DNA of 64,000 nt, taken from NCBI GenBank assembly GCA_036567745.1, contig DATCTW010000018.1, positions 194,665-258,664 of the forward strand, given 5' to 3'. The stretch's first letter is position 1; every line of letters begins with the position of its first letter. This document shows, one piece after another, positions 7,720-58,238 of this stretch. Below the pieces are notes generated by a model. The model was not told the origin of the DNA, searched no databases, and worked only from the letters and a program-made list of their open reading frames with translations. The position numbers and the translations under genes are program-made. The DNA comes from Ignavibacteria bacterium. Lineage in GTDB: Bacteria > Bacteroidota > Ignavibacteria > DATCTW01.

Positions 7720-7896
7720 ATATCCTCCTGAACACAAAATTCTATTTCCTTAACAAATAAGTAAAAATTTAAGATGTTTAAATTGAAATGTCAAGATTAA
7801 ACGATAAAATTTTTAATTGTTAAAATATCTTTTCAAAATTAATTATGGAAATAGATTATTTTTTATTATATTCTAAAATAAACATTGAGGTTATAA

Positions 7897-10110: not shown

Positions 10111-10151
10111 ATAGTATAAACAGATATTACTGATTATTTTAAAAACACTAT

Positions 10152-11039
10152 TTAATAATTTTTAATTTCAGAGGATATTCTCTTTGCGGTTTCACATGCC
10201 GCTAAACCACCGAGAGAAGTTTCTTTTAATGAATCAGACATTTTATTACCTATTTCTGCCATTGCCTTAATTACTTCATCAAGAGGTATTATTGTTCTAA
10301 TGCCAGAAAGAGCCATTTCAGCACTGGCAATAGAATTCAATGCTGCATTAACATTTCTTTTTACACATGGTATTTCTACCAAGCCTGCGATTGGATCGCA
10401 TACCAACCCTAAAATATTTTTTAGAGCAAATGCAGCTGCACTTTCGATAGCTTCTACATCATTATTAAATAAATAAGTGATGGCACCAGCAGTCATCGCA
10501 CTTGCAGAACCTACCTCTGCCTGACATCCATGAACTGCACCCGAAAGAGATGCTTGTATAGAAATAACTTCACCTATACCACCAGCTACAAATAAAGATT
10601 TTATTAATTCACTATCTGTAATGTTGTGCTTCTCAGCTATTTTAAAAAGTGCACCAGGTATTACACCAGCAGCACCAGCTGTTGGTGCAGCTACTATCTT
10701 TTTCATGCAGGCATTGGCTTCTGATACTGCCAATGAGTTTCTAATTATTTCTGAAAACTCTTTTGATAATAATGAGTTCCCCTTTTCAATAAATCTATTC
10801 ATTAGATACGCCCCACCAGAAATCATACTACTTTTTGTAACATTTTTTTTGACAAGACCAGATTTTATTGAATCCCTCATTACATTTAATGTTTTTTGCA
10901 TTCTACTAATTACAACATCTCTTGACAACTCTTCATTAGTATATTCATATAGAATAAAAAACTCTGATAAATCCAGAATTTTATTTTTTGACATAAATTT
11001 TTTTACGTCACTAAACGATTTAATTTTTATCCTTTTCAT
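10152..11039 (-). CDS. sdaAA: L-serine dehydratase, iron-sulfur-dependent, alpha subunit
   Basis: ATG start. Strong family motifs are present: 'GGAYLMNRF', 'AAPTAGAAGVIPGAL', 'CQAEVGSASAMTAGAI'. The 5' end overlaps the stop of sdaAB by 4 bp (ATGA), which is an operon arrangement. Confidence 0.85.
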   Translation of the reverse strand: MKRIKIKSFSDVKKFMSKNKILDLSEFFILYEYTNEELSRDVVISRMQKTLNVMRDSIKSGLVKKNVTKSSMISGGAYLMNRFIEKGNSLLSKEFSEIIRNSLAVSEANACMKKIVAAPTAGAAGVIPGALFKIAEKHNITDSELIKSLFVAGGIGEVISIQASLSGAVHGCQAEVGSASAMTAGAITYLFNNDVEAIESAAAFALKNILGLVCDPIAGLVEIPCVKRNVNAALNSIASAEMALSGIRTIIPLDEVIKAMAEIGNKMSDSLKETSLGGLAACETAKRISSEIKNY

Positions 11040-11704
11040 ATTTCATCAGTAATTAATTTTTCAATTCTCGTTACTTTATAAATGTTATCAGATTTTCTTA
11101 ATTTCAAAAGAATATCATCGGGGCAATGACTATCTAATTTTAACAAAGCAAAGGTATCACCACGTGAAGCATCTCTGGTAACCTCTATATATGCAATATT
11201 GATATTTTCATTACCTAATAAAGTGCCAATAAAACCAACCATTCCGGGTACATCTTTATATGAAAGCAGTAAATATTCATGCCTTCCAGTAAATTCAACT
11301 TTATTTCCATTTATCTCGATAATGCTAACCTTGCCTCCGCCAATAGAAATACCACTCACTGAAAAAGGTTCATTATCACAAAAAACAATTCTAGCTAAAT
11401 TGGGATGTTTTTCTTCATCATAGTGATAATAAAAATTAATTTTTATCCCCTTCTTTTCTGCAATTTTTATAGAATTTACAACGTTCTCATCATCAATCTT
11501 CATACCAAGCAAACCACCAACAATGGCTTTATCAGTTCCATGCCCTTTACCAGTTGTAGCAAATGAATTATACAGATGAATTTCAACTTTACTGAAAGTA
11601 TTATCATAAATCTTTTTGGCATAAAAACCAATTCTTACAGCCCCTGCAGTATGTGAACTTGAAGGACCTATCATAATTGGACCCATTACATCAAAAATAC
11701 TCAA
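11036..11704 (-). CDS. sdaAB: L-serine dehydratase, beta subunit (with ACT domain)
   Basis: The N-terminus 'SIFDVMGPIMIGPSSSHTAGA' matches the SdaAB consensus. The track start is TTG at 11704, and an alternative ATG lies at 11686. Confidence 0.8.
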   Translation of the reverse strand: MSIFDVMGPIMIGPSSSHTAGAVRIGFYAKKIYDNTFSKVEIHLYNSFATTGKGHGTDKAIVGGLLGMKIDDENVVNSIKIAEKKGIKINFYYHYDEEKHPNLARIVFCDNEPFSVSGISIGGGKVSIIEINGNKVEFTGRHEYLLLSYKDVPGMVGFIGTLLGNENINIAYIEVTRDASRGDTFALLKLDSHCPDDILLKLRKSDNIYKVTRIEKLITDEI

Positions 11705-38771: not shown

Positions 38772-40880
38772 TTAGCGAATGATTACAAACTTAACAAACT
38801 GATCAGCAATTTTTTCGCCATTTAATCCTTCTGCATCAGTTACAGCTAAGATATAAATGCCACTTGCTACATATTGATTGTCTTGTGTTCTCTGATCCCA
38901 CGCTTCATCCGCTTTACCAAAATGCTCTATGCTAGTAACAAAATCTCCTGTTTCAGTATAAATTTTAAGCTTACATTTTACAGGTAGATTTACAAATAGA
39001 ATTTTATCTGGTGTACCAGGGAATCCAAGAGGACCAGCTGCTACAGTAGCAGGATTAGGAACAACTCTTACCTTATCAGAGGTATTTAATCCAGGCTTAA
39101 ATGATGCAACAGGCATTTGAGTTCTATTTACATACCTTGAGCTTTCTAATTTTCTACCAGGGAATAAACCATTATTCTGAGTGCCATCATCAACTGCAGT
39201 AACAGCATAATAATAATTAACTCCTCTTATAACAGCGGTATCAATATAAGTTGTTTGTTCTCTATTTCTTGTTTCAAAAACTAATTCCCATTGTTCACCG
39301 CTATATTTATCTAAAGGATCATTCACATAAAATGCCCCTTTTTTTCTATATACTCGCCATGCGTACCAATCGTCAACACCTGTTACAGCATCTTTGAAAT
39401 AGCTTTTATCTGGATAAGACCATTTAACATAAATCCTATCTGGTCCGCTTTGAACGTTAATATCTGGTGGTGGTGGTGGTGAAGGTATCTTTTTCCCTTG
39501 CCTAATCATATTGTAAGCCCATAGAGCTCGATCCATTCTTTCTAAAAGAGAATCTTTCCCTGTCATAATAATATCATTTTTTTCTTTGTCAGTTATTCTA
39601 CCTTCAAACCATGCTTTTCCAACGCTATCAGCCAATTTCCATGAAATAGAACCAGCACCAATACCATAAACAAAAGTAATAGAATCGTATCGATTGTTTT
39701 TCTCATCTTTAGTTAATTTATAAGGTCCAACTGTAACAAATCTCATAGGTCCCTTTTCAGGTCTACCAGATACAACCCAACCTTGAGTAACGGGATCGAG
39801 TGGAAATCTTCCTCTTGAATCATTACCAATATAAGTATCACGTAAGCCAAAATCCCTTCTGCCCCATAAATCTTTTACAATACCTGCATGAGGTAAAGAA
39901 TATGGTTGATTAACATCATCTGTTAGATCCTGCGGTGATTTTGGAGCATAGAGCAAAGCATAACCCGGTATTTGAGTTGAAAAAAGATGACCTACAGTTT
40001 TATCAGGGTCTCCTTGATTATCCTGTGAGTTATTTTTATACTTTGGGAAACCCGGCATCCCTTTATTAAAGTAATCATAATAATAACATACTTTCAGATC
40101 TTTACGCAAACCTGAAGTATTATATTTTGATGTCCCTCCAATCCAACTATCTAAGTCGTCTTCACATTCATAACCATAATAGCCATAAACTTCTCTATTA
40201 CCTGCAAGAGATGGACCCATACTCATAGAAAATGGCCACCAGAATTCAATTGTTTGATCTGGGTACCTTTTTTGAGGATTTTCTCTCGGCAATTTAATTT
40301 CTCCGGTAAACTTTAAAGTTATTTCCCATATAGCAATATCAGATAATTCTGGATTACTAAAAGCATATACTCGAACACGGCTTCTTAATCCATAGATAGG
40401 TAAAAGATCTTCAAACTCCAGAATTTCATCTGCAATCAATTTTTCATTTACCTGCCATTTATATGGTGGGTTTAGCTTGTAGCCATCAACAGTAACATCA
40501 GGTGGCCTGTATCTTCTTTGTTCCCATGTATAATCAGTTGTAGCCTGGTTTGTGATATGAAAAAATTTTGTTCTCCTTATACCGCTTGTATCAACAATAC
40601 CAGAATCTGTTAAACAAAGTGGACTGAAAATCTGATAAAGCATATTTGATAGATAATGATCTTGAGGCCAAAAGAAGTCAAAATCATTTTGTGCAGTAGT
40701 TGTTGCAAAATTCCAGCTATATTGATTAGTAAGTCCACCTTCTCCTTTTGTTTTATTAAAATTCCATCTAATAGCATTAACATTTAATTGCATTGGTGTT
40801 GCGTTATAATCAGGTTGGGATAGTAATTGACCTGATAAAAATAACACAATAAATGCAAAAAGATACTTATTGAATTTCAT
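38772..40880 (-). CDS. Secreted protein of unknown function with an FN3-like domain and a divergent T9SS C-terminal domain; cargo encoded next to the GH18 chitinase
   Basis: The start was moved to the ATG at 40880 (GGAG RBS; signal peptide MKFNKYLFAFIVLFLSGQLLSQP), which removes the overlap with the chitinase gene. 'PPPPPDINVQSGPDRIYVKWSYPD...YYYAVTAVDDG' is FN3-like. The C-terminus 'KLKIYTETGDFVTSI...WDQRTQDNQYVASGIYILAV...KFVIIR' matches the T9SS CTD pattern. Confidence 0.6.
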   Translation of the reverse strand: MKFNKYLFAFIVLFLSGQLLSQPDYNATPMQLNVNAIRWNFNKTKGEGGLTNQYSWNFATTTAQNDFDFFWPQDHYLSNMLYQIFSPLCLTDSGIVDTSGIRRTKFFHITNQATTDYTWEQRRYRPPDVTVDGYKLNPPYKWQVNEKLIADEILEFEDLLPIYGLRSRVRVYAFSNPELSDIAIWEITLKFTGEIKLPRENPQKRYPDQTIEFWWPFSMSMGPSLAGNREVYGYYGYECEDDLDSWIGGTSKYNTSGLRKDLKVCYYYDYFNKGMPGFPKYKNNSQDNQGDPDKTVGHLFSTQIPGYALLYAPKSPQDLTDDVNQPYSLPHAGIVKDLWGRRDFGLRDTYIGNDSRGRFPLDPVTQGWVVSGRPEKGPMRFVTVGPYKLTKDEKNNRYDSITFVYGIGAGSISWKLADSVGKAWFEGRITDKEKNDIIMTGKDSLLERMDRALWAYNMIRQGKKIPSPPPPPDINVQSGPDRIYVKWSYPDKSYFKDAVTGVDDWYAWRVYRKKGAFYVNDPLDKYSGEQWELVFETRNREQTTYIDTAVIRGVNYYYAVTAVDDGTQNNGLFPGRKLESSRYVNRTQMPVASFKPGLNTSDKVRVVPNPATVAAGPLGFPGTPDKILFVNLPVKCKLKIYTETGDFVTSIEHFGKADEAWDQRTQDNQYVASGIYILAVTDAEGLNGEKIADQFVKFVIIR

Positions 40881-40893
40881 ATAATTCTCCTCG

Positions 40894-42237
40894 TTATTTG
40901 AGATACAACATTTTTCTCGTAAAAATATTTCCATTAACATTTAATGAATAATAGTATATACCTGAACTAATTTTTTTTGGTTCATAGGTTATTTTATAAG
41001 ATCCTTTCCTCATCATATCATTTATTATCACATCAATTTCTCTTCCCATCAGATCGAATACAGATAACTTAACTTTAAATATATCCCTGCTATCCTGAAG
41101 CGTAAATGAAATGTGAGTTTGAGAATTGAAAGGATTAGGATAATTTTGTTGTAATATAAATTCTTCAGGCTTTATCACTTCATTAATTCCGGATACATTT
41201 TTCAGCAAATTATTTCCTACAGTTTCGAGTAAAGGTTGAGTGCTACCAACTTTATCCTGACCAATAGCCCAAATAATTAATCCACCGATATTATTTTTCT
41301 TGATATACTCGCATTTATATTTAACAGATAAAGTATCATCATAAGATAAAACCTGAGTGTTATTGGGTTCAGTCAAATATGGAACAAACGAAACAGAATC
41401 CCAATTATATTTCCATCCAGAACTTAACCTTGGAACAATATTAGTATATGTAATTTGAGATGCGGCTGTACTTGCTCCATACAATGATTTTGAAGTAAAT
41501 AACCAACCATAAAAGCCTACACCTATACACAACTTATCATATGGTATACCTTTTGCAATATAGTATTTAAAACTTTGTTCTACTGATCCATCTGCATCAT
41601 TTTTAGGTGTGTAAAGGGGTGAATTATGTCCAGAATGATTAGTCCAGCTACCATGAAAATCATAAGTCATGATTCCAATCCAATCAAGGATATTTTTTAC
41701 TTCATTCCAATCATAACCATTATTCCAATCAGTACTGGGTGCAGCAATGCTTAATGTCATTGAAGGGTTCAATTTCAGTAGTTCACCTTTTAACTCTTTC
41801 ATCAATAATGTGAGGTTATTCCTATCATTACTTTTAGGATATTCCCAATCCAGATCAACACCATCATATCCATAAACTTTGCACATCTCAACAACGTCAT
41901 TAATAAACTTTCTCCTTTTTGCAGTATCAGAAACAACTGGAGAAAATCCATTTGACTGCCCCCAGCCACCTATACCTAAAATTACTTTTACATTTTTTTG
42001 ATGTGCAGCACTTATCAAAGCAGGAAATTCAAATCCATAAGGAACAACTAATTCACTTCCATCATCAGTTGGGTAAACAAAAGCATGTATTATGTGAGTT
42101 AAATATTCATACTTTACTTGATTGGCAGGGAAAGAAGCTTTATTCCACGAAGGATAATATCCAATCACTTTTCTAGATTGAGCAAATATATTTAACGAAA
42201 TAAATATTAAGACAAAAGTTATAATCTTTTTTAACAT
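40894..42237 (-). CDS. Chitinase, glycoside hydrolase family 18, with a T9SS C-terminal sorting domain
   Basis: GH18 catalytic motif 'DGVDLDWEYP', plus 'LGIGGW'. The CTD reads 'LQQNYPNPFNSQTHISF...IYYYSLNVNG'. Confidence 0.85.
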   Translation of the reverse strand: MLKKIITFVLIFISLNIFAQSRKVIGYYPSWNKASFPANQVKYEYLTHIIHAFVYPTDDGSELVVPYGFEFPALISAAHQKNVKVILGIGGWGQSNGFSPVVSDTAKRRKFINDVVEMCKVYGYDGVDLDWEYPKSNDRNNLTLLMKELKGELLKLNPSMTLSIAAPSTDWNNGYDWNEVKNILDWIGIMTYDFHGSWTNHSGHNSPLYTPKNDADGSVEQSFKYYIAKGIPYDKLCIGVGFYGWLFTSKSLYGASTAASQITYTNIVPRLSSGWKYNWDSVSFVPYLTEPNNTQVLSYDDTLSVKYKCEYIKKNNIGGLIIWAIGQDKVGSTQPLLETVGNNLLKNVSGINEVIKPEEFILQQNYPNPFNSQTHISFTLQDSRDIFKVKLSVFDLMGREIDVIINDMMRKGSYKITYEPKKISSGIYYYSLNVNGNIFTRKMLYLK

Positions 42238-42253
42238 TTCTTTAGTCCAGATA

Positions 42254-45200
42254 TTACAAATCTATTCTTACACCTAATAACACTCTTCTTGGATTCAAGA
42301 AAAGAGGAGCCTGCCACCAACCGATATCAATATGAGATTTATCCCATTCACCCCATTTATCATCACCTTTTTTATCTCCTTCATTAAATGGTAGTTTTAA
42401 AGATGATTTGTAATTATCCAGCTGATTTCTAGTCATATTTCCAACTTCAAGCCTTTTTTGATTTAATAAATTTTGAACAGTTAAAACTACCTCTACATTA
42501 TAACCAGTAAACTTGAACAACTTTGAAGCTCTCATATCGAGATTAGAATAATCCACTATATCTAACCATTGTTGTTTTTTGATATCAGATTCTTGAGGAT
42601 TCCATAACATCTCTCCTCCATCCTGCCATTTGAAAAGGAAATTGACATAAATATCACCTAAAATATTCATATCAAAAAGTTTTGGACCCCAATCTGAAGG
42701 AGTTCTTAGATTTACATTTATATGAGCTCTGGGTAATGGTATTGTAGTAGTTAAATTAGCAGATCTTCTTTCATCAGATGCTTCAAGTTTATTTTCATAT
42801 ATTTTCTGTAAACCACTCTGGCCATAACTCTGTAACATATAATCATAGTTTGCCCAAAATGTAATCCATTTTCCAAAAGTTCTTTCAAATCTTAACTCTA
42901 CACCTCTTACATCTTTATATTTATCAGGAACGTAAGTTGTTACAATATTATCATGATAATAATTTATATAACTCTGACTGAGTGGTTGGTTACGAAAATC
43001 TTTATAATAGAATGCAACGTTAAATAGAAAGTTTTCTAAAAATTGCTGTTCATAACCAAATTCATAAGAAACAGTCCTTCCCATGCTTAAATTTGGATTA
43101 GGCAAAGTAACGGCTGAAGGATATACATTTAAATTATATAAAAATGATACAGGTGCTCTTTGATAAAAATGACCATAATTAAAATAAAGTTTACTTTCAG
43201 TAGTAATTGGGAAAGAGACTGACAATCTTGGTGAAATTTGCGCCTGAAGCTTATTCTTTTCACGAGGCCAGTTTGGTGGGTTTTCGAGCATATCTTTGTA
43301 AATTTGCCACCTTTCATAAGAGCCCCATCCACCAGGCAAATTCATATAAACCTTATTATAAAAATCAGAATAACTTTGATCAGGTGGATTAGTTACAATA
43401 AATCCCTTTTTATTTGGATCAAAAATATCAAGCCTAACACCAGCATTTGCTATCATTCCTTCAAATTCAATTTTATCTTGTAAGTATGCACCTAATTCAA
43501 TAGGTGTTACTTTATAATATTGCCAGGTATCTGTTGTCCACATTCTTTCTGATTGCAACCATGTACCACCATAAGTATATAGATAAGTGAGTTTGGCTGA
43601 GATACCTGCTTCAAATTGATTATGTTCACCAAGCTGAGAAGTAAAATCACTACTCAATTGTACTGTCCATGAATATGAGGAGTCGTCTCTTTGGGTTCCC
43701 CCATATAACCAGAACATGTTTAACTCATCTGTTGCCCAATTAGTTGAAGCGTTAGGAGTGCCACCATTAGGAACATTTAAGAATCTATAACCACCAATTG
43801 TAATCCATGCATCAGGTTTTGTTGTATCTAAAGAAAATGGTCTTAACTCATGATCTGTATAACCAAAATGTAAATTCACAGTGTAAAAAGAACTTGCTGA
43901 AAGAGTATGTGTAAACTTCACACCTCCAATTATATATCTCTGATCATAATATTGCAATCTACTCTTATTGAACATTCGATAGAAATTATCGCTACCAATA
44001 AGTGCAGCTTGTCTTTTTACTGAGGGTTCTGAATTACTTATAAAATTAAAACTTGATGATGGATCAACTAAAGTACCACCGTAATTAGTAGCGCTACCTT
44101 CATTAAGAGATGATATCTTTGCATACATACCATCGACAGATAATCTCATATTCGGAGAAAGAACACTGGTTAGCTTTAATTGAGTATTCCAATCTATATA
44201 ACTATCTCTTGGACCAACTGGAAAAGCAAATTGTGAATTCTCATACTTAAACCCTAAAAGAAAAGTAGTATTCCTAAAATATTCACCAAGTAATGGTAAT
44301 TCACCCCCTGGCAATGGACCACTAAGAGATGTTTCTATATAAATATCGGGTTTTTTCCCATAAGAATATTGGGGATGTCGCAATTTCCATAATTGTAATT
44401 TTTGTTCTGGTGTAAGTTTTGCATCTTTTGGTAAATCAGGATAGTTACCTGTTGAGGGATCGTTCCAACCCTTAAATCCCCAAAACTCTGGAGGTACAGC
44501 CAAACTATCCTCTTTAGTCTTAATACCATTCATTGCATATTTTCCTGCAAACACCTGATAAATTGGCGATTCATTACTATATGGATCTGTTCCAAAAAAT
44601 TTCTTTTTTGCAGTTGGTGTAATATCAACTTTTAGAGCAAAGTTATATTTATCTCTATTTCCTTCTTTTGTAACAACATTCAACAAACCCGATTGTATAC
44701 CACCATACTTAGCTTGAAAGCCACCTGTTAGAACTTGTAATTCCTGTATGGTTGTTGAGTTAAGAGATAAATATGAATTTTCACTTCTAGGATCTTGAAG
44801 AGAAATACCTTCAATACGAATGTCTGTTTCACGAATAGCGCCACCTCTAACACTAAGTCCATGCCCTTCGTTATTATCAACTAATTCAATACCCTTCAAA
44901 TTTCCGACAAATTCATCGACTCTAACAATAGGCACTTCAGCAATACGAGCTGTTTGGATAACTTCTTGTGTTGAGGCAACATCTGGTTTAATTACTTCTC
45001 TCTCATAAGTAACAACAATTGCATCCATTTGAACAGATGATGGAGTTAACTTAATATTAAGAGTAATGGTTCTGTCTGCATCAACTTGCACTTTTGCTTT
45101 AGTGTAAGTAGAATAGCCCACCATACTTGCCTTAACATTATAAAATCCTGGTGGCACATTAAGAATCGCAAAATATCCGTTTTCATTTGTAACAGCACCC

Positions 45201-45400
45201 AACTTTGGATTTTGAGCGTAAGGGTGTCCAGAAACCCAAACTGTATCAATCATTACGGTTACACCAATAAGTGGTTCATTTGTTTGGGAATCAGTTACTC
45301 TTCCGGAAATTTTGCCATTCCCAGAGTAAAGCAATTCAGGAAATAATAATGAAATAAAGGAAAGTAATAACAGGCAATAAAAGAAGTAAAACTTCTTCAT
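42254..45400 (-). CDS. TonB-dependent outer-membrane receptor (SusC/RagA-like) with an N-terminal carboxypeptidase-regulatory-like domain
   Basis: The track start is TTG (45412), and the ATG at 45400 is preceded by GGAGG. The CarbopepD_reg block reads 'GKISGRVTDSQTNEPLIGVTVMI...GYFAILNVPPGFYNVKASMVGYS'. A plug-like region ('LSVRGGAIRETDIRIEGISLQDP') is followed by a long beta-barrel. Confidence 0.7.
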   Translation of the reverse strand: MKKFYFFYCLLLLSFISLLFPELLYSGNGKISGRVTDSQTNEPLIGVTVMIDTVWVSGHPYAQNPKLGAVTNENGYFAILNVPPGFYNVKASMVGYSTYTKAKVQVDADRTITLNIKLTPSSVQMDAIVVTYEREVIKPDVASTQEVIQTARIAEVPIVRVDEFVGNLKGIELVDNNEGHGLSVRGGAIRETDIRIEGISLQDPRSENSYLSLNSTTIQELQVLTGGFQAKYGGIQSGLLNVVTKEGNRDKYNFALKVDITPTAKKKFFGTDPYSNESPIYQVFAGKYAMNGIKTKEDSLAVPPEFWGFKGWNDPSTGNYPDLPKDAKLTPEQKLQLWKLRHPQYSYGKKPDIYIETSLSGPLPGGELPLLGEYFRNTTFLLGFKYENSQFAFPVGPRDSYIDWNTQLKLTSVLSPNMRLSVDGMYAKISSLNEGSATNYGGTLVDPSSSFNFISNSEPSVKRQAALIGSDNFYRMFNKSRLQYYDQRYIIGGVKFTHTLSASSFYTVNLHFGYTDHELRPFSLDTTKPDAWITIGGYRFLNVPNGGTPNASTNWATDELNMFWLYGGTQRDDSSYSWTVQLSSDFTSQLGEHNQFEAGISAKLTYLYTYGGTWLQSERMWTTDTWQYYKVTPIELGAYLQDKIEFEGMIANAGVRLDIFDPNKKGFIVTNPPDQSYSDFYNKVYMNLPGGWGSYERWQIYKDMLENPPNWPREKNKLQAQISPRLSVSFPITTESKLYFNYGHFYQRAPVSFLYNLNVYPSAVTLPNPNLSMGRTVSYEFGYEQQFLENFLFNVAFYYKDFRNQPLSQSYINYYHDNIVTTYVPDKYKDVRGVELRFERTFGKWITFWANYDYMLQSYGQSGLQKIYENKLEASDERRSANLTTTIPLPRAHINVNLRTPSDWGPKLFDMNILGDIYVNFLFKWQDGGEMLWNPQESDIKKQQWLDIVDYSNLDMRASKLFKFTGYNVEVVLTVQNLLNQKRLEVGNMTRNQLDNYKSSLKLPFNEGDKKGDDKWGEWDKSHIDIGWWQAPLFLNPRRVLLGVRIDL

Positions 45401-45733
45401 AAAAACCTCCAATAAATGACCAAATATTCAAAATTATTTTTTCTGAAGAGAAAGAGGACTGCGAAAAAGAGGTTTTTCCTTTGCCTTAATAAAAAACCGG
45501 TATTGTATTTCTTGACGGCTTTGGATCGCGAACACCGCACATCCTTTTTCCCTAAAGGGAAGCATATTTGCTAGAAAGTATGAAGTATGGAATACCCATC
45601 ACTCATGCTTCCGTTGTGAAGGTAATAAAAAAAAATTCTTTTGTCAAGTAAAAAAACAAATTTTTTTATTTATAATTTTTTTAGAATTTTTCCGATTGCT
45701 TTATTTACATGGTACCCGGAAGAATTAATTATT

Positions 45734-46293: not shown

Positions 46294-49200
46294 TTATTCA
46301 CAACGTTTATTTAAAATATTATATACTACTTCAGATACTTTTGATAAATCAAGAGGTTTATCTAAAATATGGGAAAAACCAACAGAATATATATTTTTAT
46401 CCTGATAGTAACCAGACATTGCAACAATAGGAATATCTTTACATATTTTTTTGACCTCTGTGCACAGTTCTATTCCTGTCATTTCTGGCATAGTAATATC
46501 AGTAATAATTAAATCAAATTTTTCATCTGTAATTAATTTTAAAGCATCTAGACCGTTTTGAGCATTTTTTACTATATAATTTAAATCATCCAGATACTCT
46601 GTTAGCATAAATCTTATGCCCTCATCATCTTCAACAATTAGTATTTTCTGATTATTGCCAATAAATAATTCTCTTCTATCTTCATCTAAACTTTTATCTG
46701 AAGAATCTATAACAATAGGAAAATATATTTTGAATTCTGTGCCTTTACCTAATTCTGTATATAAATTAATAAATGCATCATTTTTATTAATATTATTTAA
46801 CACAATAGATAAACCAAGCCCTGTTCCTTTTCCTATTTCTTTAGTTGTAAAGAAAGGATCAAAAATTTTATCAATTATTTCAAGAGGAATTCCGCTTCCA
46901 CTATCCTTAATAACTAAAAGAGCATATTTACCGGGTTTCATAATTCCATTTTTTGTAATAACATCATAGGAAATATTTATTTCATCAGTTCTTATTTCAA
47001 TACTGCCTTTATTTTGAATGGCATCTCTTGAATTAATCACAAGATTCATTATTACCTGCTCAATTTGTGCAATATCAGCATTAATAATCAACTTTTTATG
47101 GTAAATATTTCTCTCTAATATAATATTTTCGGGAATAAGCCTTATCAACATTTTCCACAAATCATCAACAATTAAATTAAGGTCTATAATTTGTTTTACA
47201 ACCTGTTGCTTTTTACTGAAAGCTAAAATTTGTAGAATTATATTTTTCGCTTTTGAATTTGCCCCAACCAGAGCCTCAATGTATCTTTTATTATTTGTTT
47301 TACAATTCGAACATAATTTTCTTTCCAACAATTCAGTATTACCAATTAATACAGTTAATATATTATTTAAATCATGAGCTATGCCACCAGCTAATTGACC
47401 TACAACTGACATCTTTTCAGATTGAATAATTTGCTTTTCTAATTTTTTCCTTTCTGTAACATCCCTAATAAATCCTCCAACTCCAAATTTATTATCAATT
47501 AATTTTATTTTAAATTTTCTTACCTCAAATACTCTATCTCCAAAAGTTTCTTCAGTAATTACTACCCCATCACTTTCGACAGCTAGTTTATCACTATTAT
47601 AACATTGGTTTGCTTCTATTTCGGACATAAGTTCAAAATCATTTTTACCAATAATATCATCATAATTTCTGTTATATAAATCAACACCAGCATTATTAAT
47701 ATAAAGGTACCTAAAATCAGAATCTTTAAGAAGAACAATATCATTAGTTGAATTTAAAAATTCTCTGAATTGTCTTTCGCTTTCTTTTAAAGCCTTTTCT
47801 ACCTTTATTCTATATGTTACATCGTGAATAATTGAAAATAGATATTCTTTATCCTTAATAAAAATTGGTCCACTATAAACCTCAACATCTCTTAACTCAC
47901 TGTTAGAAAGCCTATGAGTAAAAAGTAAAAATCTCTTTTCTTTATTTTTGACAGCTAGCATTTCTTTTTTTATTACATCCTCAGTGGAAGCATTAATCTG
48001 ATAAATCTTCATTTTTTTCAATTCTTCTCTTGAATAACCATAAAAGGTACAAGCTGAAGGATTAGCATCTAAAATATCTCCGCTATCAGGATTAATCAAA
48101 AGCATAACTGAATAGTTGTTTTCAAAAATACTTCGATATCTTTCTTCACTTTCTTTTAAAGCACTCTCTGCAAATTTCTTTTCTGTAATATCTTCATAAG
48201 TACCAAGCACTCCGATTATTTTCCCTTCACTATCTTTTAATGGCACTTTACTTGTTCTTAGAAACCTTTTAGTACCATCAAAAATAATATGCTCTTCTTC
48301 ATAATTCAATTTTGGTGTATCATTCCCTATAACAAATTTATCATCTTCGATGAACATTTTAGCTACTTCTGGAATAACCGAATCATAATCACTTTTTCCA
48401 ATAATTTGCTCAGGGTCCTCAAATTTATAATCCTTAGCAAAATTTTTATTACATCCCAAATAGATAGAATTTCTATCTTTCCAAAATACTCTTACAGGTA
48501 TTGTATCTAATACCAATCTTAACATATTTTTCGATTCAAGTAATTCCATTTCAATTTTCTTTCTTTCAGTAATATCTCTTCCCACACCAATTATGCTGAT
48601 AACATTATTATGTTTATCTAATACAGCTTTATCTGCCCACCCAATCCATCTCCAGCCATCTTTTGTTAAAGCTCTTTGTTCAATATAACAAGAGTATGGA
48701 GGTTTATATAAATTTTTCATTTCCTCCAAAGTAAGTGCTAAATCATCAGGATGAACTAAAGGCATAAAAGTATTTCCTAAGAGCTCTTCTTCCTTTTTCC
48801 CAAACAATTGACAGTATGATGGACTTACAAATTCAAACTTTCCATTTGTATCAACTTTTACTAAAAGGTCTGTTTGATTATTTACAAGTAATCTGTATTT
48901 TTCCTCACTTTGTCTAAGTAATTCTTCAGCTTTATTTTTTTCTTGAATAAATCTTGCCTGTTGTACATTTTGTATAGCAAGTAAAGATAATTGCTTTGCT
49001 ATAAGGTGAAGAGCTTTACAGATCTTTTCAAATTGTTCTCGAGGCATTCGCGTAACTTTTTTTAGTTCTTCTCTAAACTTTTCTTTATCAGCACCAATAA
49101 CATCAGCATAATTTAATATAGTTTTTTCATCTATATTTTCATCTACTATTTGACCAATCAACCAATTAGCAATGTGATTATTTCCTACCATTATACTAGT

Positions 49201-50718
49201 TCCACCATCTAACAATCCACCACTAAGGCATGGTTGCATTTTATAACCATGAGGATTTATTTTACCAAGTTCTGCATCAGATTTATAGCAATTTTCTCTA
49301 CCTTTTTCAGTACCTCTAATAATATTTTCACAAAGATAAGAAAAATTACTTGGTTTTGTAATAGGTTTACCATCAGGATATGTTATAATTGATGCAACAC
49401 CAGTTGCAAAAGCAAAAGCATCCTGAATTTTCTGAATTTCCTCGATATCAAATATATCTTCAAATCTTATATCACCAATATCTGAAACAGGTTTAGTAAG
49501 TGCTACTAAACGATTTGCTAATTGTTCATTTAACCTTTTTATTTCATTTTCTGCTTTTTTCTTTTCGGTTATATCACGTACAATTGCATGAATATATTTT
49601 TTACCTTTCAGCTCAAAACAATTTAAGCTTACTTCAGTATCAAATAATGTTCCATCTCCACTTTTATGTTTCCATTCAAAATGTTGAGGAACGCCAGCTA
49701 TCGCCATTTCAACTAATTCTTTTCCTTTTTCAGCTGATTTTCTCCCATCTTCCTGGTATTCAGGTGAAAAAGTAAATGGATTAGAACCAATCATTTTTTC
49801 TTTTGAAGTTCTAAAAATTTTTGTAGCTGCTGTATTACAATCAACAAACACAATATCATCCATTATTAAAATTCCATCATCAGCAGATTCAAACAAAATT
49901 CTAAATTTTTCTTCGTTTTCCCTTAAAGAATTTTCTAATTCAATATGTTGAGTAACGTCATTTGCAACAGCATAAATTTTATCATTAATTGGATAAGAGT
50001 TCCACTCTATCCATTTATATGTACCATTTTTACATCTATATCTATTTAGAAATTCCAAGACTATTTCCTGATTTTTCAAATTTTCTAAAGCTTTTAAAGT
50101 TGAAGGGAGATCATCTGGATGAACAAAATCCAAAAATACAGCACCATCTAACTCTTCTTTTGAATAACCAAGAACCTGTTCCCATAAAGGATTTACTCTG
50201 ATAAAACTGCCAGAAGTATCTGCAATACACAATAACTGTAAAGAGACATTAAAAAATCTTTCAAATTCTTCAGTCTTTTTTTCTAAATCCTTTAAATTTT
50301 TTTTCTCTTCGGTAATATCAATATTTATACCATAAGCTACAGGTTTTTCCAAAACTTTATTTAAGGGTGAAAACAAAGTACGATAATATTTTACTTCGCC
50401 ATTTTTAACAACAGAATTTTCAAAGGATAGAAACTCTCCTGACAAAGCCTTTTTGTTTGTTTGTTCCCATTCTTCTGCCATTAATTTATCATCTAAAAAA
50501 TCTTTGGGTGATTCCCCTATATGATAACCCCAATTTTTAATTGAATATGAGTTCTGTAATATATATTTACCCTCTGAATCTAATGCCCAAATCTCAAATG
50601 GAATTTTATCGAGTATAGCTTTATAAAAAATTTCTTTTTCCTGATATTCTTTAACAACTTTTTTTAAATTAGAAATTTCTTCTAAAAGCTCGTTATTGGA
50701 ACTTTTATTTTTATCCAT
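46294..50718 (-). CDS. Hybrid sensor histidine kinase/response regulator with multiple PAS/PAC domains (1474 aa)
   Basis: ATG start. At least 6 PAS-like modules are present. HisKA reads '[21 protein letters not shown]'. HATPase reads '[10 protein letters not shown]...DSGSGIP...GTGLGLS'. The C-terminal REC reads '[14 protein letters not shown]...[17 protein letters not shown]'. Confidence 0.9.
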
Positions 50719-52848: not shown

Positions 52849-55800
52849 ATGAGAAGATTTAACTTATTATTTTTTATATTTATATTTTTAGCAATTAATA
52901 TCCAAGCTCAACAGTTTGGTAAAAATAAAGTTCAGTATAAAAATTTTGATTGGTATTATATTCAGACTGAGCATTTTGACATTTATTTCAGTCAAGGTGG
53001 AGAATATATAACCGATTTTACTGCTTCTGTTGCAGAAGATGCTTTGGCGAGAATGCAAAAAGAATTTAAACACCAAATAACAAATAGAATACCTATTGTT
53101 GTTTATAATTCCCATAATGATTTTCAACAAACAAATGTTGTTCAGGAATATATGGAAGAAGGCGTTGGTGGAGTTACTGAACTTTTTAAAAATAGAGTTG
53201 TTGTACCTTTTGAAGGCAACTACAAGCAATTTGAACATGTTATAAGACACGAACTTATTCACGCATATCTAAATGATATGTTTTATGGTGGCTCAATTCA
53301 ATCAATAATATCAAATAATATTACTCTACAAATTCCATTATGGGTAAATGAAGGATTAGCAGAGTACTTTTCTTTAAATGGGTGGGATACAAATTCAGAT
53401 ATGTTTTTAAGAGATGCAACAATAAGTGGATATTTACCCTCGATAAATGGTCTTAATGGATACTTTGCTTACCGGGGTGGCCAATCTGTTTTCTGGTATA
53501 TTGCAGAAAAGTATGGAAGAGAAAAAATTGGTGAAATATTACAAAAAACCAAAACCCTAAGAAGCGTTGAACAAGCATTAAAAAGCTCTATCGGCTTAAA
53601 CTATGAAGAGCTTTCGGAACGATGGTTAAGAGAGCAAAAAGTACTTTATTGGCCTGACATAGCTAAAAGAGAAGATCCAGGTCTATTTGCAAAAAAAATG
53701 ACAGATCATAGAAAAGATAATAATTTCTATAATACCTCACCAGCTATTTCACCAAAAGGTGACAAAATTGCATTTATATCTGATAGAAAAGATTATTTTG
53801 ATGTTTATGTAATGTCTACAACCGATCCCAAAGATATTGAAAAAGTAGTAGATGGTCAAAGAACCAAAGATTTTGAAGAGTTACACTTATTAACTCCTGG
53901 AATTACCTGGTCACCTGATGGAAATAAAATTGCGCTTGCTGTAAAAAGTGGTGATAGAGATGCTATTTTTATTATAGATATAAAAAGCGGTGATGAAGAA
54001 AAAATTAAATTCGATTTAGATGGAATATTCTCTGTACATTGGTCTCCAAAAGGGGATAAAATAACTTTTGTAGGCAATACCTCAAGGCAATCGGATATAT
54101 ATGTTTACGATTTAATTACAAAAACTTTAACAAATTTAACTAATGATATCTTCAGTGATTCTGACCCAACTTTTGCTAATGATGGAGAAACAATTTACTT
54201 TTCTTCAGATAGAGATAATTATCTAACACCGCTTAAAGAATCAGCAAGCTTTAGAATATTCAAGCATAATATTCAACAATACGATTTGTATTCAATTAAC
54301 ATTAACACGAAAAAAATTGAAAGAATTACTAATTTGCCAGATAGTGACGAAAGTTCTGTTGTTGTTTCTGCAGATGGCAAAAAGATTCTCTTTATTTCCG
54401 ATAAGAATGGTATAAATAATATTTATGAAAAAAACTTAGAGACTGGAATAATTAGACCTATAACTAACTCTTTAAATGGAATTTATCAGCTTTCATTATC
54501 AGCAGATGATTCTAAGTTAGCTTTTTCATCAATGGTTTATGCTGGTTTCGATATTTTCTTGTTAAAAAATCCATTTGAAAAAAAGTTAAATGTAACCGAG
54601 CTTGAACCTACTGAATTCATAAAACGAAAAATGTACAAACCCTATGATGCAAGTAAATACTTAGCAAAAAATGCTGATACAAGTGAAGTAAAAATTGACA
54701 CAATAAAATCAAAATCACCTGAGGTTAAAAAATCCGAAGAAGATACCCTAAAACTCTATGGAGAAAAAATCGAGATAGATTTCCAGAATTATATCTTTGC
54801 TGAATCATACAACAGAGATTCTCTTTTATCATTAAGGCAATCCACAAAACCACTTGAACCCGTAGAAGGCAAGGATAGTCTTGGAAGGTACATTGTCAAC
54901 AAATATAAGCTAAATTTTACTCCAGATATTATTTACGGAAATGCAGGTTATAGTACTTTTTACGGCGTGCAAGGAACTACAGAAATGGCATTTTCTGATA
55001 TGTTAGGAAATCATCAAATTTATTTTGCAACCAACCTTTTGCTTGATTTAAAAAATAGTGATTACGTTTTAGCATATTACTATTTGCCTAACAGAATCGA
55101 TTGGGGAATTGTGATGTATCATTCTGCACGTTTTCTTTATTATGACGACCCCTATAGTTATTACTCATATTTGTATAGATACAGAAACTATGGATTAAAC
55201 TTAATAATGTCTGTTCCTTTTGACAAATTTAACCGAACGGATTTTAACCTTGGTCTGATGAATATTTCAAAAGAAAATCTTGACAATCCATATGAGCCTT
55301 CACAAGATTATACTCTTTTGGTTCCTCAAATATCATACACACACGATAATGTGCTATGGGGAATGACTGCACCAGTTAATGGTAAAAGATATGAATTTGC
55401 TTTATACGGTAGCCCAAAATTTGGGAATAATTCTTTAGGGTTTTATACTTTTACAGCGGATTATAGAAAATACTTTAAATTCTGGAGCGATTATAATTTC
55501 ATATTCCGTTTTGCAGGTGGTCTAAGTGGCGGTCCTAATCCCGGTCAATTTTTCATTGGTGGCACAGAGAACTGGATTAACAGAACATTTGAGAATGAAA
55601 ACATACCTATAGAAAACGCGCAAGATTTTGCCTTCTTTAGTCCCGGTTTGCCTTTACGAGGTTATAATTATGATGCTAAAAGAGGCACAAGATATTCTAT
55701 TATAAACCTTGAATTAAGATTTCCTTTAATAAAATATTTCCTAGCTGGTCCAATACCATTATTCTTCCAGAATATCTTAGGAACTGCATTTATTGATTTA

Positions 55801-56010
55801 GGTACAGCATGGAGTAAAGATAAATCTCTAAGATTATTTGATAAAGATGAAGCCGGGGCTTTAGGTACCAGAGATTTGTTAATTGGTATGGGTTTCGGGT
55901 GGAGAGTATTTATTTTATATTTCCCTGTTAAATTTGATATTGCCTGGCCTTACAATTTTAAAAACTTTGGTAGCTCAAAATTTTACATTTCAATAGGTGC
56001 TGACTTTTAA
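52849..56010 (+). CDS. Omp85/BamA-superfamily outer-membrane protein with an N-terminal gluzincin-like metallopeptidase domain (HExxH...NEGxAEY) and a central TolB-like PD40 beta-propeller
   Basis: Signal peptide. 'IRHELIHAYLNDMFYGGSIQSIISNNITLQIPLWVNEGLAEYFS' mirrors M1-type 'HExxH-x18-E / WLNEGFA'. PD40-type repeats follow ('SPKGDKIAFISDR', 'SPDGNKIALAV', 'SPKGDKITFVGN', 'DGETIYFSSDR', 'DGKKILFISDK'). The C-terminus 'AFIDLGTAW...LIGMGFGWRV..LYFPVKFDIAWPYN...KFYISIGADF' matches the Bac_surface_Ag (Omp85) terminal strands. Confidence 0.6.
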   Translation: MRRFNLLFFIFIFLAINIQAQQFGKNKVQYKNFDWYYIQTEHFDIYFSQGGEYITDFTASVAEDALARMQKEFKHQITNRIPIVVYNSHNDFQQTNVVQEYMEEGVGGVTELFKNRVVVPFEGNYKQFEHVIRHELIHAYLNDMFYGGSIQSIISNNITLQIPLWVNEGLAEYFSLNGWDTNSDMFLRDATISGYLPSINGLNGYFAYRGGQSVFWYIAEKYGREKIGEILQKTKTLRSVEQALKSSIGLNYEELSERWLREQKVLYWPDIAKREDPGLFAKKMTDHRKDNNFYNTSPAISPKGDKIAFISDRKDYFDVYVMSTTDPKDIEKVVDGQRTKDFEELHLLTPGITWSPDGNKIALAVKSGDRDAIFIIDIKSGDEEKIKFDLDGIFSVHWSPKGDKITFVGNTSRQSDIYVYDLITKTLTNLTNDIFSDSDPTFANDGETIYFSSDRDNYLTPLKESASFRIFKHNIQQYDLYSININTKKIERITNLPDSDESSVVVSADGKKILFISDKNGINNIYEKNLETGIIRPITNSLNGIYQLSLSADDSKLAFSSMVYAGFDIFLLKNPFEKKLNVTELEPTEFIKRKMYKPYDASKYLAKNADTSEVKIDTIKSKSPEVKKSEEDTLKLYGEKIEIDFQNYIFAESYNRDSLLSLRQSTKPLEPVEGKDSLGRYIVNKYKLNFTPDIIYGNAGYSTFYGVQGTTEMAFSDMLGNHQIYFATNLLLDLKNSDYVLAYYYLPNRIDWGIVMYHSARFLYYDDPYSYYSYLYRYRNYGLNLIMSVPFDKFNRTDFNLGLMNISKENLDNPYEPSQDYTLLVPQISYTHDNVLWGMTAPVNGKRYEFALYGSPKFGNNSLGFYTFTADYRKYFKFWSDYNFIFRFAGGLSGGPNPGQFFIGGTENWINRTFENENIPIENAQDFAFFSPGLPLRGYNYDAKRGTRYSIINLELRFPLIKYFLAGPIPLFFQNILGTAFIDLGTAWSKDKSLRLFDKDEAGALGTRDLLIGMGFGWRVFILYFPVKFDIAWPYNFKNFGSSKFYISIGADF

Positions 56011-56045
56011 TTTTTGTGATGCGATAATATCGCATCACAAAAAAT
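56011..56045. terminator. Bidirectional rho-independent terminator between convergent genes
   Basis: Perfect palindrome TTTTTGTGATGCGATA-AT-ATCGCATCACAAAAAA immediately after the TAA stop at 56008-56010. Confidence 0.7.
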
Positions 56046-56061
56046 ATTATTACTAATGTAT

Positions 56062-57561
56062 CTACTCTACTATAGGAAACTTAATTATAAATGTAGAACC
56101 TTTGCCCAACTCACTATTTACTTCAATAGTACCTTTATGAAGATCAACGATCCATTTAGCAATTGCTAAACCTAAACCAGAACCTCCTAACTCTCTTGAT
56201 CGAGCTTTATCTACCCTGTAAAACCGCTCAAATATCTTATTTATTGACTCTTTTGGTATACCAATACCTGTATCGGTAATAACAAATATAGCTGTTTTAT
56301 TTTCCTTATAAAGTGAAATCTCGACTTTTCCAAATTCATTATTGTATTTGATAGCATTATCTATTAAATTCAAAAACAATTGTCTTAATTTGACTTTATC
56401 ACCCCTTATTTTTACTTCATCCATCTTATTAAGTAAAATGGAGATATTTTTATTTTTTGCGAGATGTTCACTATCTTCATACAACTCCATTACCAATGTA
56501 TCAAGGTTTATTATTTCAAAATGAACATCGGTTTGACCAGCATCAGATTTTGTTAAATTGAACAAACTATCAATTATTGAAGACATCCTTACTACTTCAT
56601 CAAGTAAACTTTTTAGAGTGTTAACATATTCTTCAGGTGTTTTATTGCTTTTGAGTGCAACTTCAATTTCACCTCTTAATATCGTTAATGGCGTTCTAAG
56701 CTCATGGGAAGCGCTAACTGAAAACTGTTTGGTCTGTTCAAATGATTTTTGTAAGCGATCTATCATCTCATTAAAAGTTGTTATCAACCTGCCAATCTCA
56801 TCATCAATTTCATTAGGTGGTATACGTTTTGATAAATTAAGGCTACTTATCTCTCTTGCTGTTCTAGTAATTTGATCTACTGGTTGTAATGATTTACGAG
56901 CAAGGAACCAACCTGTTACAATTGATATAACAAAAGAAATTGGTATTATTAAAATCAGGACAGAAAAAAGTTCGTTTAATATATCGCTAATTTCTTCAAA
57001 AGGGTAACCTACTAGTATCTTCATTTTATCGGTTTTAGTTGCAGCTAATCTCATTGATTTACTTCTAAGATTAGAAGACCATAGAAAATTAATTTTATCG
57101 GTTTCAATATTACCAGCAAAATACAAAGTATCATTTTTCAAATTTGCAGAACGATAAATTTCTTCGTCATTCAAATCAGTTATAAAAATAAAGTTATTCT
57201 TTGAGTTCCACAACAAATGTTCATAAATCTTATTCCATGTTTCGTCAGGTTCAATTGTTTCTACAGTATCAACTATAGCTAATTTAGTACTATCAATCTT
57301 TTTTAATTTTCTACTTTTTACTTTTGTAGGTTTCTGTGGAGTAAAAATAAAAGTTTTTCTTTGTTTTACTCTTTTCTTTTTTTCAATAGGTGTAATATTA
57401 TTTTTTATCCAATTAATTTCAGTTGAAAGAGAAGAATCCAGATTATCTAATAAAATACTACTTATTGATAGGTAAGAAATCATACCAAAAATAATAAAGG
57501 AAAGTATCAAAATTGTGGCATAAGTTATGGCAAGACGAAATCTAATCGATTTGAAAAACAT
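56062..57561 (-). CDS. Sensor histidine kinase (periplasmic sensor domain, HAMP, HisKA, HATPase)
   Basis: 'SASHELRTPLTILRGEIEVAL' H-box, 'NLIDNAIKYN' N-box, 'DTGIGIP', 'GGSGLGLAI'. The start overlaps the RR stop by 1 bp. Confidence 0.9.
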   Translation of the reverse strand: MFFKSIRFRLAITYATILILSFIIFGMISYLSISSILLDNLDSSLSTEINWIKNNITPIEKKKRVKQRKTFIFTPQKPTKVKSRKLKKIDSTKLAIVDTVETIEPDETWNKIYEHLLWNSKNNFIFITDLNDEEIYRSANLKNDTLYFAGNIETDKINFLWSSNLRSKSMRLAATKTDKMKILVGYPFEEISDILNELFSVLILIIPISFVISIVTGWFLARKSLQPVDQITRTAREISSLNLSKRIPPNEIDDEIGRLITTFNEMIDRLQKSFEQTKQFSVSASHELRTPLTILRGEIEVALKSNKTPEEYVNTLKSLLDEVVRMSSIIDSLFNLTKSDAGQTDVHFEIINLDTLVMELYEDSEHLAKNKNISILLNKMDEVKIRGDKVKLRQLFLNLIDNAIKYNNEFGKVEISLYKENKTAIFVITDTGIGIPKESINKIFERFYRVDKARSRELGGSGLGLAIAKWIVDLHKGTIEVNSELGKGSTFIIKFPIVE

Positions 57562-58238
57562 TAATTGTCATCCTCTTTCATAACATAACCAGCACCACGA
57601 ACAGTATGGATAAGCTTTTTATCAGCTTTGCCATCAACCTTTTGTCTTAAATGATTTACATATACATCTATAACATTAGTACCTGTATCAAAATTTATAT
57701 TCCATATTTTTTCTGAAATGGTTTCTCTTGTTATAGTTTTATTTTTATTTCTCATGAAAAACTCAAGCAAAGCATACTCACGAGCAGTTAATTCAATTTC
57801 CACACCATTTCTTTTAGCTTTATGTTTTACGGTATCAAGTTCAAGATCTGCAACTTTTAGTAATGTAGATTTTAATTCGCCACGACGAAATAGCGATTTA
57901 ATCCTTGCCAATAGTTCCTCAAAAGCAAAAGGTTTGGTAAGGTAATCATCTGCACCAAGGTTAAAACCAGTTACTTTATCATTAATAGTATCTTTAGCTG
58001 TTAACATTAGAATTGGAGTCATAATATTATTTTGTCTTAACTTTTCCAGTACTTCAAAGCCATCCATTTTTGGTAACATTACATCAAGAATTATCAAATC
58101 GTATTTTGGTTCGAGTGCTTTTTGGAAGCCTTCTTCCCCATTAAAAGCTAAATCAACAAAATAACCTTCTTCATCAAGGCCCTGTTTAATAAATTTCGAG
58201 ACCTTTTTTTCGTCTTCAATAAGCAATATGTTTTTCAT
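57561..58238 (-). CDS. OmpR-family DNA-binding response regulator
   Basis: REC reads 'ILLIEDEKKV...DLIILDVMLPKMDGFEV...LTAKD'. The winged-helix C-terminus reads 'LTAREYALLEFFMRN...VDVYVNHLRQK'. Confidence 0.9.
   Translation of the reverse strand: MKNILLIEDEKKVSKFIKQGLDEEGYFVDLAFNGEEGFQKALEPKYDLIILDVMLPKMDGFEVLEKLRQNNIMTPILMLTAKDTINDKVTGFNLGADDYLTKPFAFEELLARIKSLFRRGELKSTLLKVADLELDTVKHKAKRNGVEIELTAREYALLEFFMRNKNKTITRETISEKIWNINFDTGTNVIDVYVNHLRQKVDGKADKKLIHTVRGAGYVMKEDDN

Follow-up and report, generated by a model that had tools for sequence, protein, structure and literature searches.

A predicted zinc peptidase and a TolB-like propeller joined to a BamA-type barrel in an Ignavibacteria genome: a member of the WD40-like Omp85 subfamily

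Omp85 proteins that carry a propeller and a peptidase on one chain have been catalogued before. Heinz and Lithgow (2014; PMC4104836) defined a 'WD40-like' Omp85 subfamily with the domain profiles PF01103 and PF07676 (their Table S2), and their Table S3 gives, for about 100 members, Phyre2 matches to BamA/TamA (4k3b/4c00) and TolB (2w8b/2ivz) together with a 'best aminopeptidase hit' to an aminopeptidase or collagenase (1z5h, 4kxd, 3qnf, 4fgm, 4ar1, 4ar9). The members in that table come from Ignavibacterium, Melioribacter, Rhodothermus, Salinibacter, Cytophagia, Myxococcota, Geobacter, Vibrio and others. The main text of PMC4104836 treats only the propeller, as a possible BamA-BamB-like fusion, and never discusses the peptidase. 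A 2016 paper names 'WD40-Omp85' among the Omp85 types, and a 2024 paper (PMC11358297) refers to a subfamily with 'divergent WD40 and peptidase domains'. Here we describe a gene from an Ignavibacteria bacterium (GCA_036567745.1, contig DATCTW010000018.1, positions 194,665 to 258,664 of the forward strand; this stretch of 64,000 nucleotides is the window, and positions below are those of the window). The gene is a member of this described WD40-like, or WD40 and peptidase, Omp85 subfamily, and its product is a genuine outer-membrane protein in which a predicted zinc peptidase and a TolB-like propeller are attached to a BamA-type barrel. With a little better than even confidence, we favor the reading that the product is an outer-membrane-anchored periplasmic protease linked to outer-membrane biogenesis.

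The open reading frame (ORF) has exactly the coordinates given in an earlier note on the window, which was made from its sequence and called a peptidase, a propeller and an Omp85 barrel; all three domain calls are correct. From the N-terminus the modules are a signal peptide, a gluzincin domain, a TolB-like PD40 propeller, a disordered linker and a 16-stranded BamA/TamA-type barrel:

52849 to 56010, plus strand: complete ORF of the peptidase-propeller-Omp85 protein, 1053 aa and stop.
52849 to 52908, plus strand: predicted Sec/signal peptidase I (SPI) signal peptide, aa 1-20, MRRFNLLFFIFIFLAINIQA with cleavage before QQ, read from the sequence by eye.
52945 to 53703, plus strand: gluzincin catalytic domain, aa ~33-285, Pfam Peptidase_MA_2, from PF13485 and fold.
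53731 to 54573, plus strand: TolB-like PD40 beta-propeller, aa ~295-575, ~22-24 strands in about six blades, from Pfam, PDB and fold.
54574 to 54894, plus strand: disordered charged linker, aa 576-682 (107 aa), from AlphaFold2 confidence and composition.
54895 to 56007, plus strand: 16-stranded Omp85 (BamA/TamA-type) beta-barrel, aa 683-1053, from AlphaFold2, Foldseek and profile.

The signal-peptide region has no lipobox cysteine, and AlphaFold2 models it as a helix (aa 2-18) followed by a low-confidence segment. The entire 1053-aa product contains zero cysteines and is therefore not a lipoprotein. G+C in the window is ~26-35%. Three alignments were used: 59 close homologs (A1), 83 representatives at 26-51% identity (A2, the distant members) and the barrel region only of 23 diverse family members (A4). 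The full-length AlphaFold2 model was built from A1 and has a mean predicted local distance difference test score (pLDDT) of 75 and a predicted template modelling score (pTM) of 0.65.

The fusion had been called unusual in the earlier note, and this does not hold. Of 8,000 candidates scored, 5,926 clusters at 90% identity match with E<=1e-5, so that more than 5,900 clusters share the full-length architecture, and the best 120 are all 1022-1100 aa long. A search with the barrel region gave 1,633 representatives at 50% identity, 950 of them at E<=1e-10 and most of ~1,000-1,100 aa. Relatives are present in at least 571 species-representative genomes. An assembly artefact or chimeric ORF is ruled out by the thousands of full-length homologs with identical domain order. 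An Ignavibacterium album metagenome-assembled genome (locus L015) encodes a 58%-identical ortholog, which speaks indirectly for a grouping by sequence with the UniProt members listed for the subfamily (such as I0AKC8, I7A1M2 and D0MEQ5). NCBI/ENA already hold a 98%-identical protein, in a cluster named 'biopolymer transporter Tol [Ignavibacteria bacterium]', and the names of other relatives vary ('PD40 domain-containing protein', 'BamA/TamA family outer membrane protein', 'peptidase MA family metallohydrolase'). No full-length homolog was found in the PDB. An Omp85 barrel, a TolB-like propeller and an aminopeptidase/collagenase-like domain lie together on one chain, as in the WD40-like subfamily, and our fold searches gave the protein families of Table S3 of PMC4104836, partly as the same entries (4c00, 2w8b, 2ivz, 3qnf and 4ar9). 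The 'Metallo-Omp85' subfamily of the same paper was rejected as a home for the protein; its defining domain, PF00149, is a different one.

The barrel is recognized by fold and by family conservation. The AlphaFold2 model has 11 strands (aa 690-894), a long loop 6 (L6)-type loop with a short helix, and then 5 strands (aa 948-1048). This layout equals that of BamA, with L6 between strands 11 and 12. Searched against the PDB with Foldseek, the full-length model matched TamA (4c00, 382 columns) and dozens of BamA structures, with template modelling (TM) scores of ~0.6 and up to 0.64 that are model-based and normalised to barrel-only BamA crystals. The A4 barrel profile found seven matches in the PDB, all BamA-type, the best at 2e-12. 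In that alignment the family PLRGY falls on BamA LRGYD, FvDvGsaW on FADAGRAW, and the terminal GaDF on GQSF. The motifs concerned are:

55654 to 55665, plus strand: L6-loop LRGY, aa 936-939, the Omp85 (V/I)RG(F/Y) signature, aligned with LRGYD of F. nucleatum BamA.
55789 to 55803, plus strand: FIDLG, aa 981-985, the Omp85 FxDxG signature on strand 13, aligned with BamA FADAG.
55996 to 56007, plus strand: C-terminal GADF with a beta-signal-type terminal aromatic residue, aligned with the terminal F of BamA.

Among the distant members (A2), R937 is kept in 83/83 and G938 in 82/83, F981 and D983 are kept in all 83, and the last residue is F in 71 and F, Y, W or L in every one. The fully invariant residues of A2 (D717, R873, Y875, R937, R957, F981, D983 and G1015) are all within the barrel, which suggests that the barrel has a role beyond anchoring the peptidase-propeller module. 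The 16-stranded barrel expected at the C-terminus is thus what AlphaFold2, Foldseek and the A4 profile give. The earlier description of ~300 C-terminal residues of Omp85 strands with an aromatic end was right about the barrel and the terminal Phe but too short, as the barrel measures ~370 aa. The HMMER check proposed with PF01103 gave no match to the window protein even at E<=10, whether the query was the whole chain or its C-terminal 453 aa. The same profile matches 16 of the 23 diverse relatives in A4 (best 3.8e-21), and the window protein is among the seven without a match; it has a weak match to the tail of NCBIfam TamA (aa 977-1053, E 0.003). The predicted Omp85 membership rests on the family profile, the relatives and the fold.

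We predict that the N-terminal domain is a zinc peptidase. Peptidase_MA_2 (PF13485) matches aa 62-259 at 49.7-53.1 bits, against a gathering cutoff of 32.4, and covers profile positions 2-196 of 201. Three conserved motifs fall in this domain:

53167 to 53181, plus strand: conserved GGVTE motif, aa 107-111, upstream of the edge strand, from homolog conservation.
53248 to 53262, plus strand: HELIH zinc-binding and catalytic motif, aa 134-138, from conservation in homologs.
53347 to 53367, plus strand: NEGLAEY, aa 167-173, with E168 the presumed third zinc ligand, from conservation in homologs.

E168 sits 29 residues past H138, a spacing of HExxH-X29-E. H134, E135, H138, E168 and E172 are unchanged in 59/59 close homologs, and the HExxH...E site is complete in 79 of the 83 distant members, and the zinc peptidase is apparently competent. 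GGVTE is likewise unchanged in all 59 close homologs and is largely kept in the distant ones (G108 in 82/83, T110 and E111 each in 79/83); it may be analogous to the double-Gly motif of M9 or the GxMEN motif of M1. The other four distant members (P0188, P0218, P0225 and P0266) have a degenerate HExxH...E with the barrel motifs kept, and may be pseudo-peptidase variants.

A separate AlphaFold2 model of the N-terminal domain (aa 1-294; pLDDT 79, pTM 0.73) was compared with the PDB by Foldseek. The top 50 matches are all gluzincins, M9 collagenase peptidase domains and M1 aminopeptidases (TMq 0.41-0.56), including clostridial and Vibrio M9 collagenases, IRAP, PepN, ERAP1 and tricorn factor F3. 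The HExxH segment is therefore modelled within a zincin fold. There is no zincin among the top 50 Foldseek matches of the full-length model, because the propeller and barrel dominate that search. The zinc site had been described as M1-peptidase-like and a search with M1 and MA-clan models had been proposed; the gluzincin HExxH...E stands, but the domain is closer to Peptidase_MA_2, which exceeds its gathering cutoff, and to M9 collagenases than to M1. Peptidase_M1 (PF01433) scores 12.4 bits with the window protein, under its cutoff of 27.7, and the GxMEN exopeptidase motif is not present in the window protein, which has the conserved GGVTE instead. Membership of the M1 family was rejected on this sub-threshold score, on the X29 rather than X18 spacing and on the missing GxMEN; the likeness is at the fold level only.

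The several PD40 repeats that were noticed after the zinc site are confirmed by Pfam (PD40 x5, E 1.8e-25, along with DPPIV_N-type propeller matches). TolB is the best PDB sequence match (1e-11 over aa 350-561, and 3e-31 with the family profile) and also the best fold match of the propeller in Foldseek (~21% identity, ~280 aligned columns, root-mean-square deviation ~2.6-6 Å). The propeller is the most confident region of the model, with pLDDT mostly 85-93. These matches, with the source annotation 'biopolymer transporter Tol', could be taken to mean that the gene is the TolB of a Tol-Pal system. We give this almost no credence. The NCBIfam TolB matches are sub-threshold and confined to the propeller (TIGR02800, 138 bits against a cutoff of 343), and no tol-pal genes adjoin the gene in the window. 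The protein shares the PD40 propeller fold with TolB, but it lacks the TolB N-terminal domain, is 2.5x the length of TolB and has additional peptidase and barrel domains. This domain architecture refutes TolB proper, and the database name is a misnomer that reflects the propeller alone.

Between the propeller and the barrel lies the linker, in which 37% of residues are K/R/D/E and pLDDT is below 50 over aa 598-671; its length across the family (A2) is 32-191 aa. POTRA (PF07244) has no match in the window protein or in any listed homolog with precomputed Pfam domains, and with the pre-barrel segment predicted to be disordered, the earlier statement that the N-terminal part carries no POTRA is upheld. 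Subfamilies without POTRA were accepted within the Omp85 superfamily by Heinz and Lithgow (PMC4104836).

An N-terminal enzyme followed by an Omp85-type barrel is also the arrangement of PlpD and FplA in the type Vd secretion literature, and the earlier note drew this analogy. The passenger would be exported through the barrel lumen, with the linker threaded in the pore, and the protein would be a surface-displayed protease for nutritional proteolysis. With ~100 aa, the disordered linker has the length needed to span a barrel. The host resembles a polymer degrader with a type IX secretion system (T9SS): a GH18 chitinase bearing a Por_Secre_tail lies in the window. Nevertheless, we consider surface display doubtful, and the analogy found no support. 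In PlpD the passenger is a patatin, and a POTRA domain separates it from the barrel; neither patatin (PF01734) nor POTRA was detected in the window protein, and the patatin-like Omp85 cluster has other Pfam profiles in Table S2 of PMC4104836. Export would require a folded propeller and a helical domain of 250 aa to pass through a BamA-type barrel whose L6 lock motifs are fully conserved, and the conserved neighbors in relatives, described below, are outer-membrane-biogenesis genes rather than nutrient-uptake genes. The phyla concerned normally display surface enzymes via T9SS or as lipoproteins. The peptidase-propeller module is most likely on the periplasmic side, because a 16-stranded barrel has both termini there and no type V secretion unit is present.

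We examined the gene surroundings of relatives by clustering the flanking ORFs of 80 related loci. The locus search, based on A1, covers Ignavibacteriota/Kryptonia-type genomes at 51-61% identity; distant lineages were sampled one at a time. An RNase R gene (Pfam RNB/S1) lies immediately upstream on the same strand in 39 of the 65 loci with at least 2.5 kb of upstream sequence, with a median gap of 87 bp. The order TamB/AsmA-like gene, RNase R gene, target gene on one strand was found, with short gaps, in 36/57 Ignavibacteriota loci with at least 5.5 kb upstream (among L003-L082), and also in L001, L085 and L091. The TamB/AsmA-like gene of L001 has AsmA, DUF748 and TamB_N domains and TamB as its best NCBIfam match (7.8e-22). 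Two Balneolaceae-type orthologs of 39-40% identity have the same order, with a TamB gene (PF04357), in 2/2 cases. It is odd to find a gene for an RNA exonuclease between two envelope genes, and this arrangement does not occur in the window. In L085 the target gene is called as two ORFs, one at 8001-10403 (800 aa, peptidase and propeller) and one at 10454-11293 (279 aa, Omp85); the cause is a frameshift, an assembly error or a natural split.

Other clades have other neighbors. Two Eisenbacteria-type members of 33% identity come directly after rpsB-tsf-pyrH-frr-uppS-cdsA-dxr-rseP, and in E. coli the place after rseP is that of bamA. A gene for a BamB-like PQQ propeller lies just downstream in 4/4 sampled members of a shorter clade (~830-940 aa, 26% identity), and abuts or overlaps the 3' end of the target in two of the four loci. 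The best NCBIfam match of these propeller genes is BamB (E 1e-21 to 1e-47). The positions, in the coordinates of each locus, are:

L083, 8001 to 11090: Eisenbacteria-type family member after rseP.
L090, 7843 to 10884: Eisenbacteria-type family member after rseP.
L087, 10753 to 11823: BamB-like PQQ propeller gene.
L089, 5924 to 7075: BamB-like PQQ propeller gene.
L086, 8499 to 9758: BamB-like PQQ propeller gene.
L084, 11851 to 12936: BamB-like PQQ propeller gene.

Locus L088 has no informative neighbors. Downstream genes in Ignavibacteriota (parts of tripartite ATP-independent periplasmic (TRAP) transporters, an amino-acid permease, a phosphate-binding protein and a two-component pair) each occur in a minority of loci.

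The linkage in Ignavibacteriota and Balneolaceae-type genomes could mean that the protein is the outer-membrane partner of the TamB/AsmA-like bridge, a POTRA-less substitute for TamA or TamL. In this case the barrel would take over proteins or lipids that TamB delivers, and the peptidase-propeller module would be accessory or regulatory. No TamA/TamL gene adjoins TamB in L001 or L085, and TamB without TamA, paired with other Omp85 proteins, is found in the literature. Still, we give this a low probability. The unrelated RNase R gene always intervenes, the linkage is absent from the window gene and from ~37% of Ignavibacteriota loci, and the other clades have rseP or BamB-like genes as neighbors. 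TamB is thought to dock on POTRA domains, which are absent here. In Bacteroidota the TAM partner described so far is TamL.

The earlier note also considered a substrate-capturing device for peptide uptake, in which an open barrel channel is fed peptides by the propeller and peptidase. We regard this as very improbable. Nothing beyond the co-occurrence of peptidase and barrel speaks for it. All 83 diverse members retain the L6 plug motifs of BamA-type barrels, and the N-terminal module is expected in the periplasm, where it would be badly placed to capture substrates. Genes for transporters or TonB are not conserved in the surroundings; those for the amino-acid permease and TRAP are found in only 13-22 of the 80 loci, at variable distance and orientation, and the recurrent neighbors (TamB-like, the rseP/bamA slot, BamB-like) are not genes for peptide transport or nutrient acquisition.

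We favor the reading of a periplasmic protease linked to outer-membrane biogenesis because both termini of a 16-stranded barrel are periplasmic, no type V secretion unit is present and the neighbors that recur in three separate clades are outer-membrane-biogenesis genes. The protein would be exported by Sec and its signal peptide cleaved, and the C-terminal 371 residues would then form the 16-stranded BamA/TamA-type barrel, which is predicted to keep the Omp85 L6 lock, with LRGY packing against FxDxG. The peptidase-propeller module would hang in the periplasm, joined to the barrel by the flexible charged linker of ~100 residues, and would be an outer-membrane-anchored envelope protease for outer-membrane biogenesis or quality control. 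The propeller may bind a partner or an unfolded polypeptide and hand it to the zinc site. The barrel may anchor the module beside BAM/TAM-type machinery, or may itself take part.

Several points weigh against this reading. Without POTRA there is no known way for the barrel to bind BamB, BamD or TamB. The window gene itself lacks any informative neighbor (TamB-like, rseP or BamB-like), and the context sample outside Ignavibacteriota is small, at 10 loci. With RNase R between TamB and the target, the linkage could be inherited gene order rather than a functional operon. The BamB-like neighbors score 76-160 bits, below the BamB equivalog cutoff of 285. The literature searched contained no experiments on a member of the family; its mentions are at the level of classification.

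A bolder proposal, which we think unlikely though worth stating, is that the protein is a self-contained machine for outer-membrane assembly and surveillance, made of a BamA-type barrel, a TolB-like clamp for a substrate or partner and a BepA-like zinc protease. Depending on lineage, its partner would be a TamB-like bridge or a dedicated BamB-like lipoprotein. If true, it would be a third Omp85 machine beside BAM and TAM in the Fibrobacterota-Chlorobiota-Bacteroidota (FCB) group and several other phyla, and would couple delivery of beta-barrels (or lipids) to proteolytic quality control.

The discovery value of the gene is small, as the architecture was already on record in 2014 and is found in thousands of genomes, and a protein of 98% identity has been deposited. 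The subfamily is one of the largest in Omp85 and is inconsistently named by annotation pipelines. The repeated association of the family with TamB-like and BamB-like genes and with the rseP/bamA slot leads to a concrete hypothesis, in which a periplasmic protease would be coupled to outer-membrane biogenesis, and cultured carriers exist (Ignavibacterium, Melioribacter, Rhodothermus and Cytophaga).

In the window, the target gene begins 258 bp after a gene for a pyridoxal-phosphate (PLP) enzyme of Cys/Met metabolism, which itself follows the methylglyoxal synthase gene (mgsA). A convergent set of histidine kinase, response regulator and OmpA-like genes lies downstream, and the target gene looks monocistronic. 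Between the convergent genes, directly past the stop codon, there is a hairpin that is likely a bidirectional terminator, judging from its sequence:

56011 to 56043, no strand assigned: 15-bp perfect inverted repeat/hairpin, TTTTTGTGATGCGAT...ATCGCATCACAAAAA.

A scan for sigma-70 promoters gave 18 matches, against 20.3 in shuffled sequence, with a promoter type that may not suit the phylum. The genes convergent to the target (56062-58238, minus strand) encode a HAMP-HisKA histidine kinase and an OmpR-type response regulator; the kinase is present at 23/80 and the regulator at 19/80 related Ignavibacteriota loci, about a quarter. Just upstream of mgsA and the PLP enzyme gene, a 1474-aa ORF (46294-50718, minus strand) resembles, on inspection by eye only, a hybrid histidine kinase that ends in a receiver domain.

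No paralogs of the target were found in the window; the two other ORFs of ~1050 aa are unrelated to it. One is a 1055-aa ORF (4570-7737, minus strand) with an unusual combination of Pfam matches, to the carbohydrate-binding module CBM_4_9, to Phospholipase B and to the C-terminal part of Peptidase_M1. The other, a 1052-aa CarboxypepD_reg protein that is possibly a TonB-dependent/SusC-like receptor, belongs to a group of three adjacent genes at 38772-45412 (minus strand) with the GH18 chitinase carrying Por_Secre_tail, a T9SS sorting domain, and a 722-aa protein that has no Pfam match. The group looks like a chitin-utilisation cluster, and the sorting domain on the chitinase indicates that the host uses type IX secretion.

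Compared with known systems, the protein shares with BamA and TamA the 16-stranded barrel, the L6 (V/I)RG(F/Y) and FxDxG motifs and the terminal aromatic residue. It differs from them in having no POTRA, and its sequence is missed by PF01103. Relative to F. nucleatum BamA, it has an insertion of ~26 residues in L6 before LRGY. With the gluzincins of M9, M1 and Peptidase_MA_2 it shares HExxH and the downstream Glu ligand within W-x-x-E-G-x-A-E, in a thermolysin-like fold. M1 aminopeptidases have X18 ligand spacing, whereas the window protein has X29, and it is without the N-terminal and C-terminal domains of M1 and the activator domain of M9 collagenases.

BepA is a periplasmic M48 metalloprotease that acts with BAM. 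It provides the nearest functional analogy, as a zinc HExxH protease with a protein-interaction module at the outer-membrane assembly machinery. The two proteins are not homologous: BepA combines M48 with tetratricopeptide repeats, whereas the window protein combines MA_2 with PD40, and BepA is soluble or peripheral rather than fused to a barrel.

The closest described system is the WD40-like Omp85 subfamily of PMC4104836, which has the same three modules as the window protein and no structural difference from it. The links to TamB-like genes, the rseP slot and BamB-like genes are absent from that paper. The architecture is already known, and the gene-context pattern is the sole addition of the present analysis.

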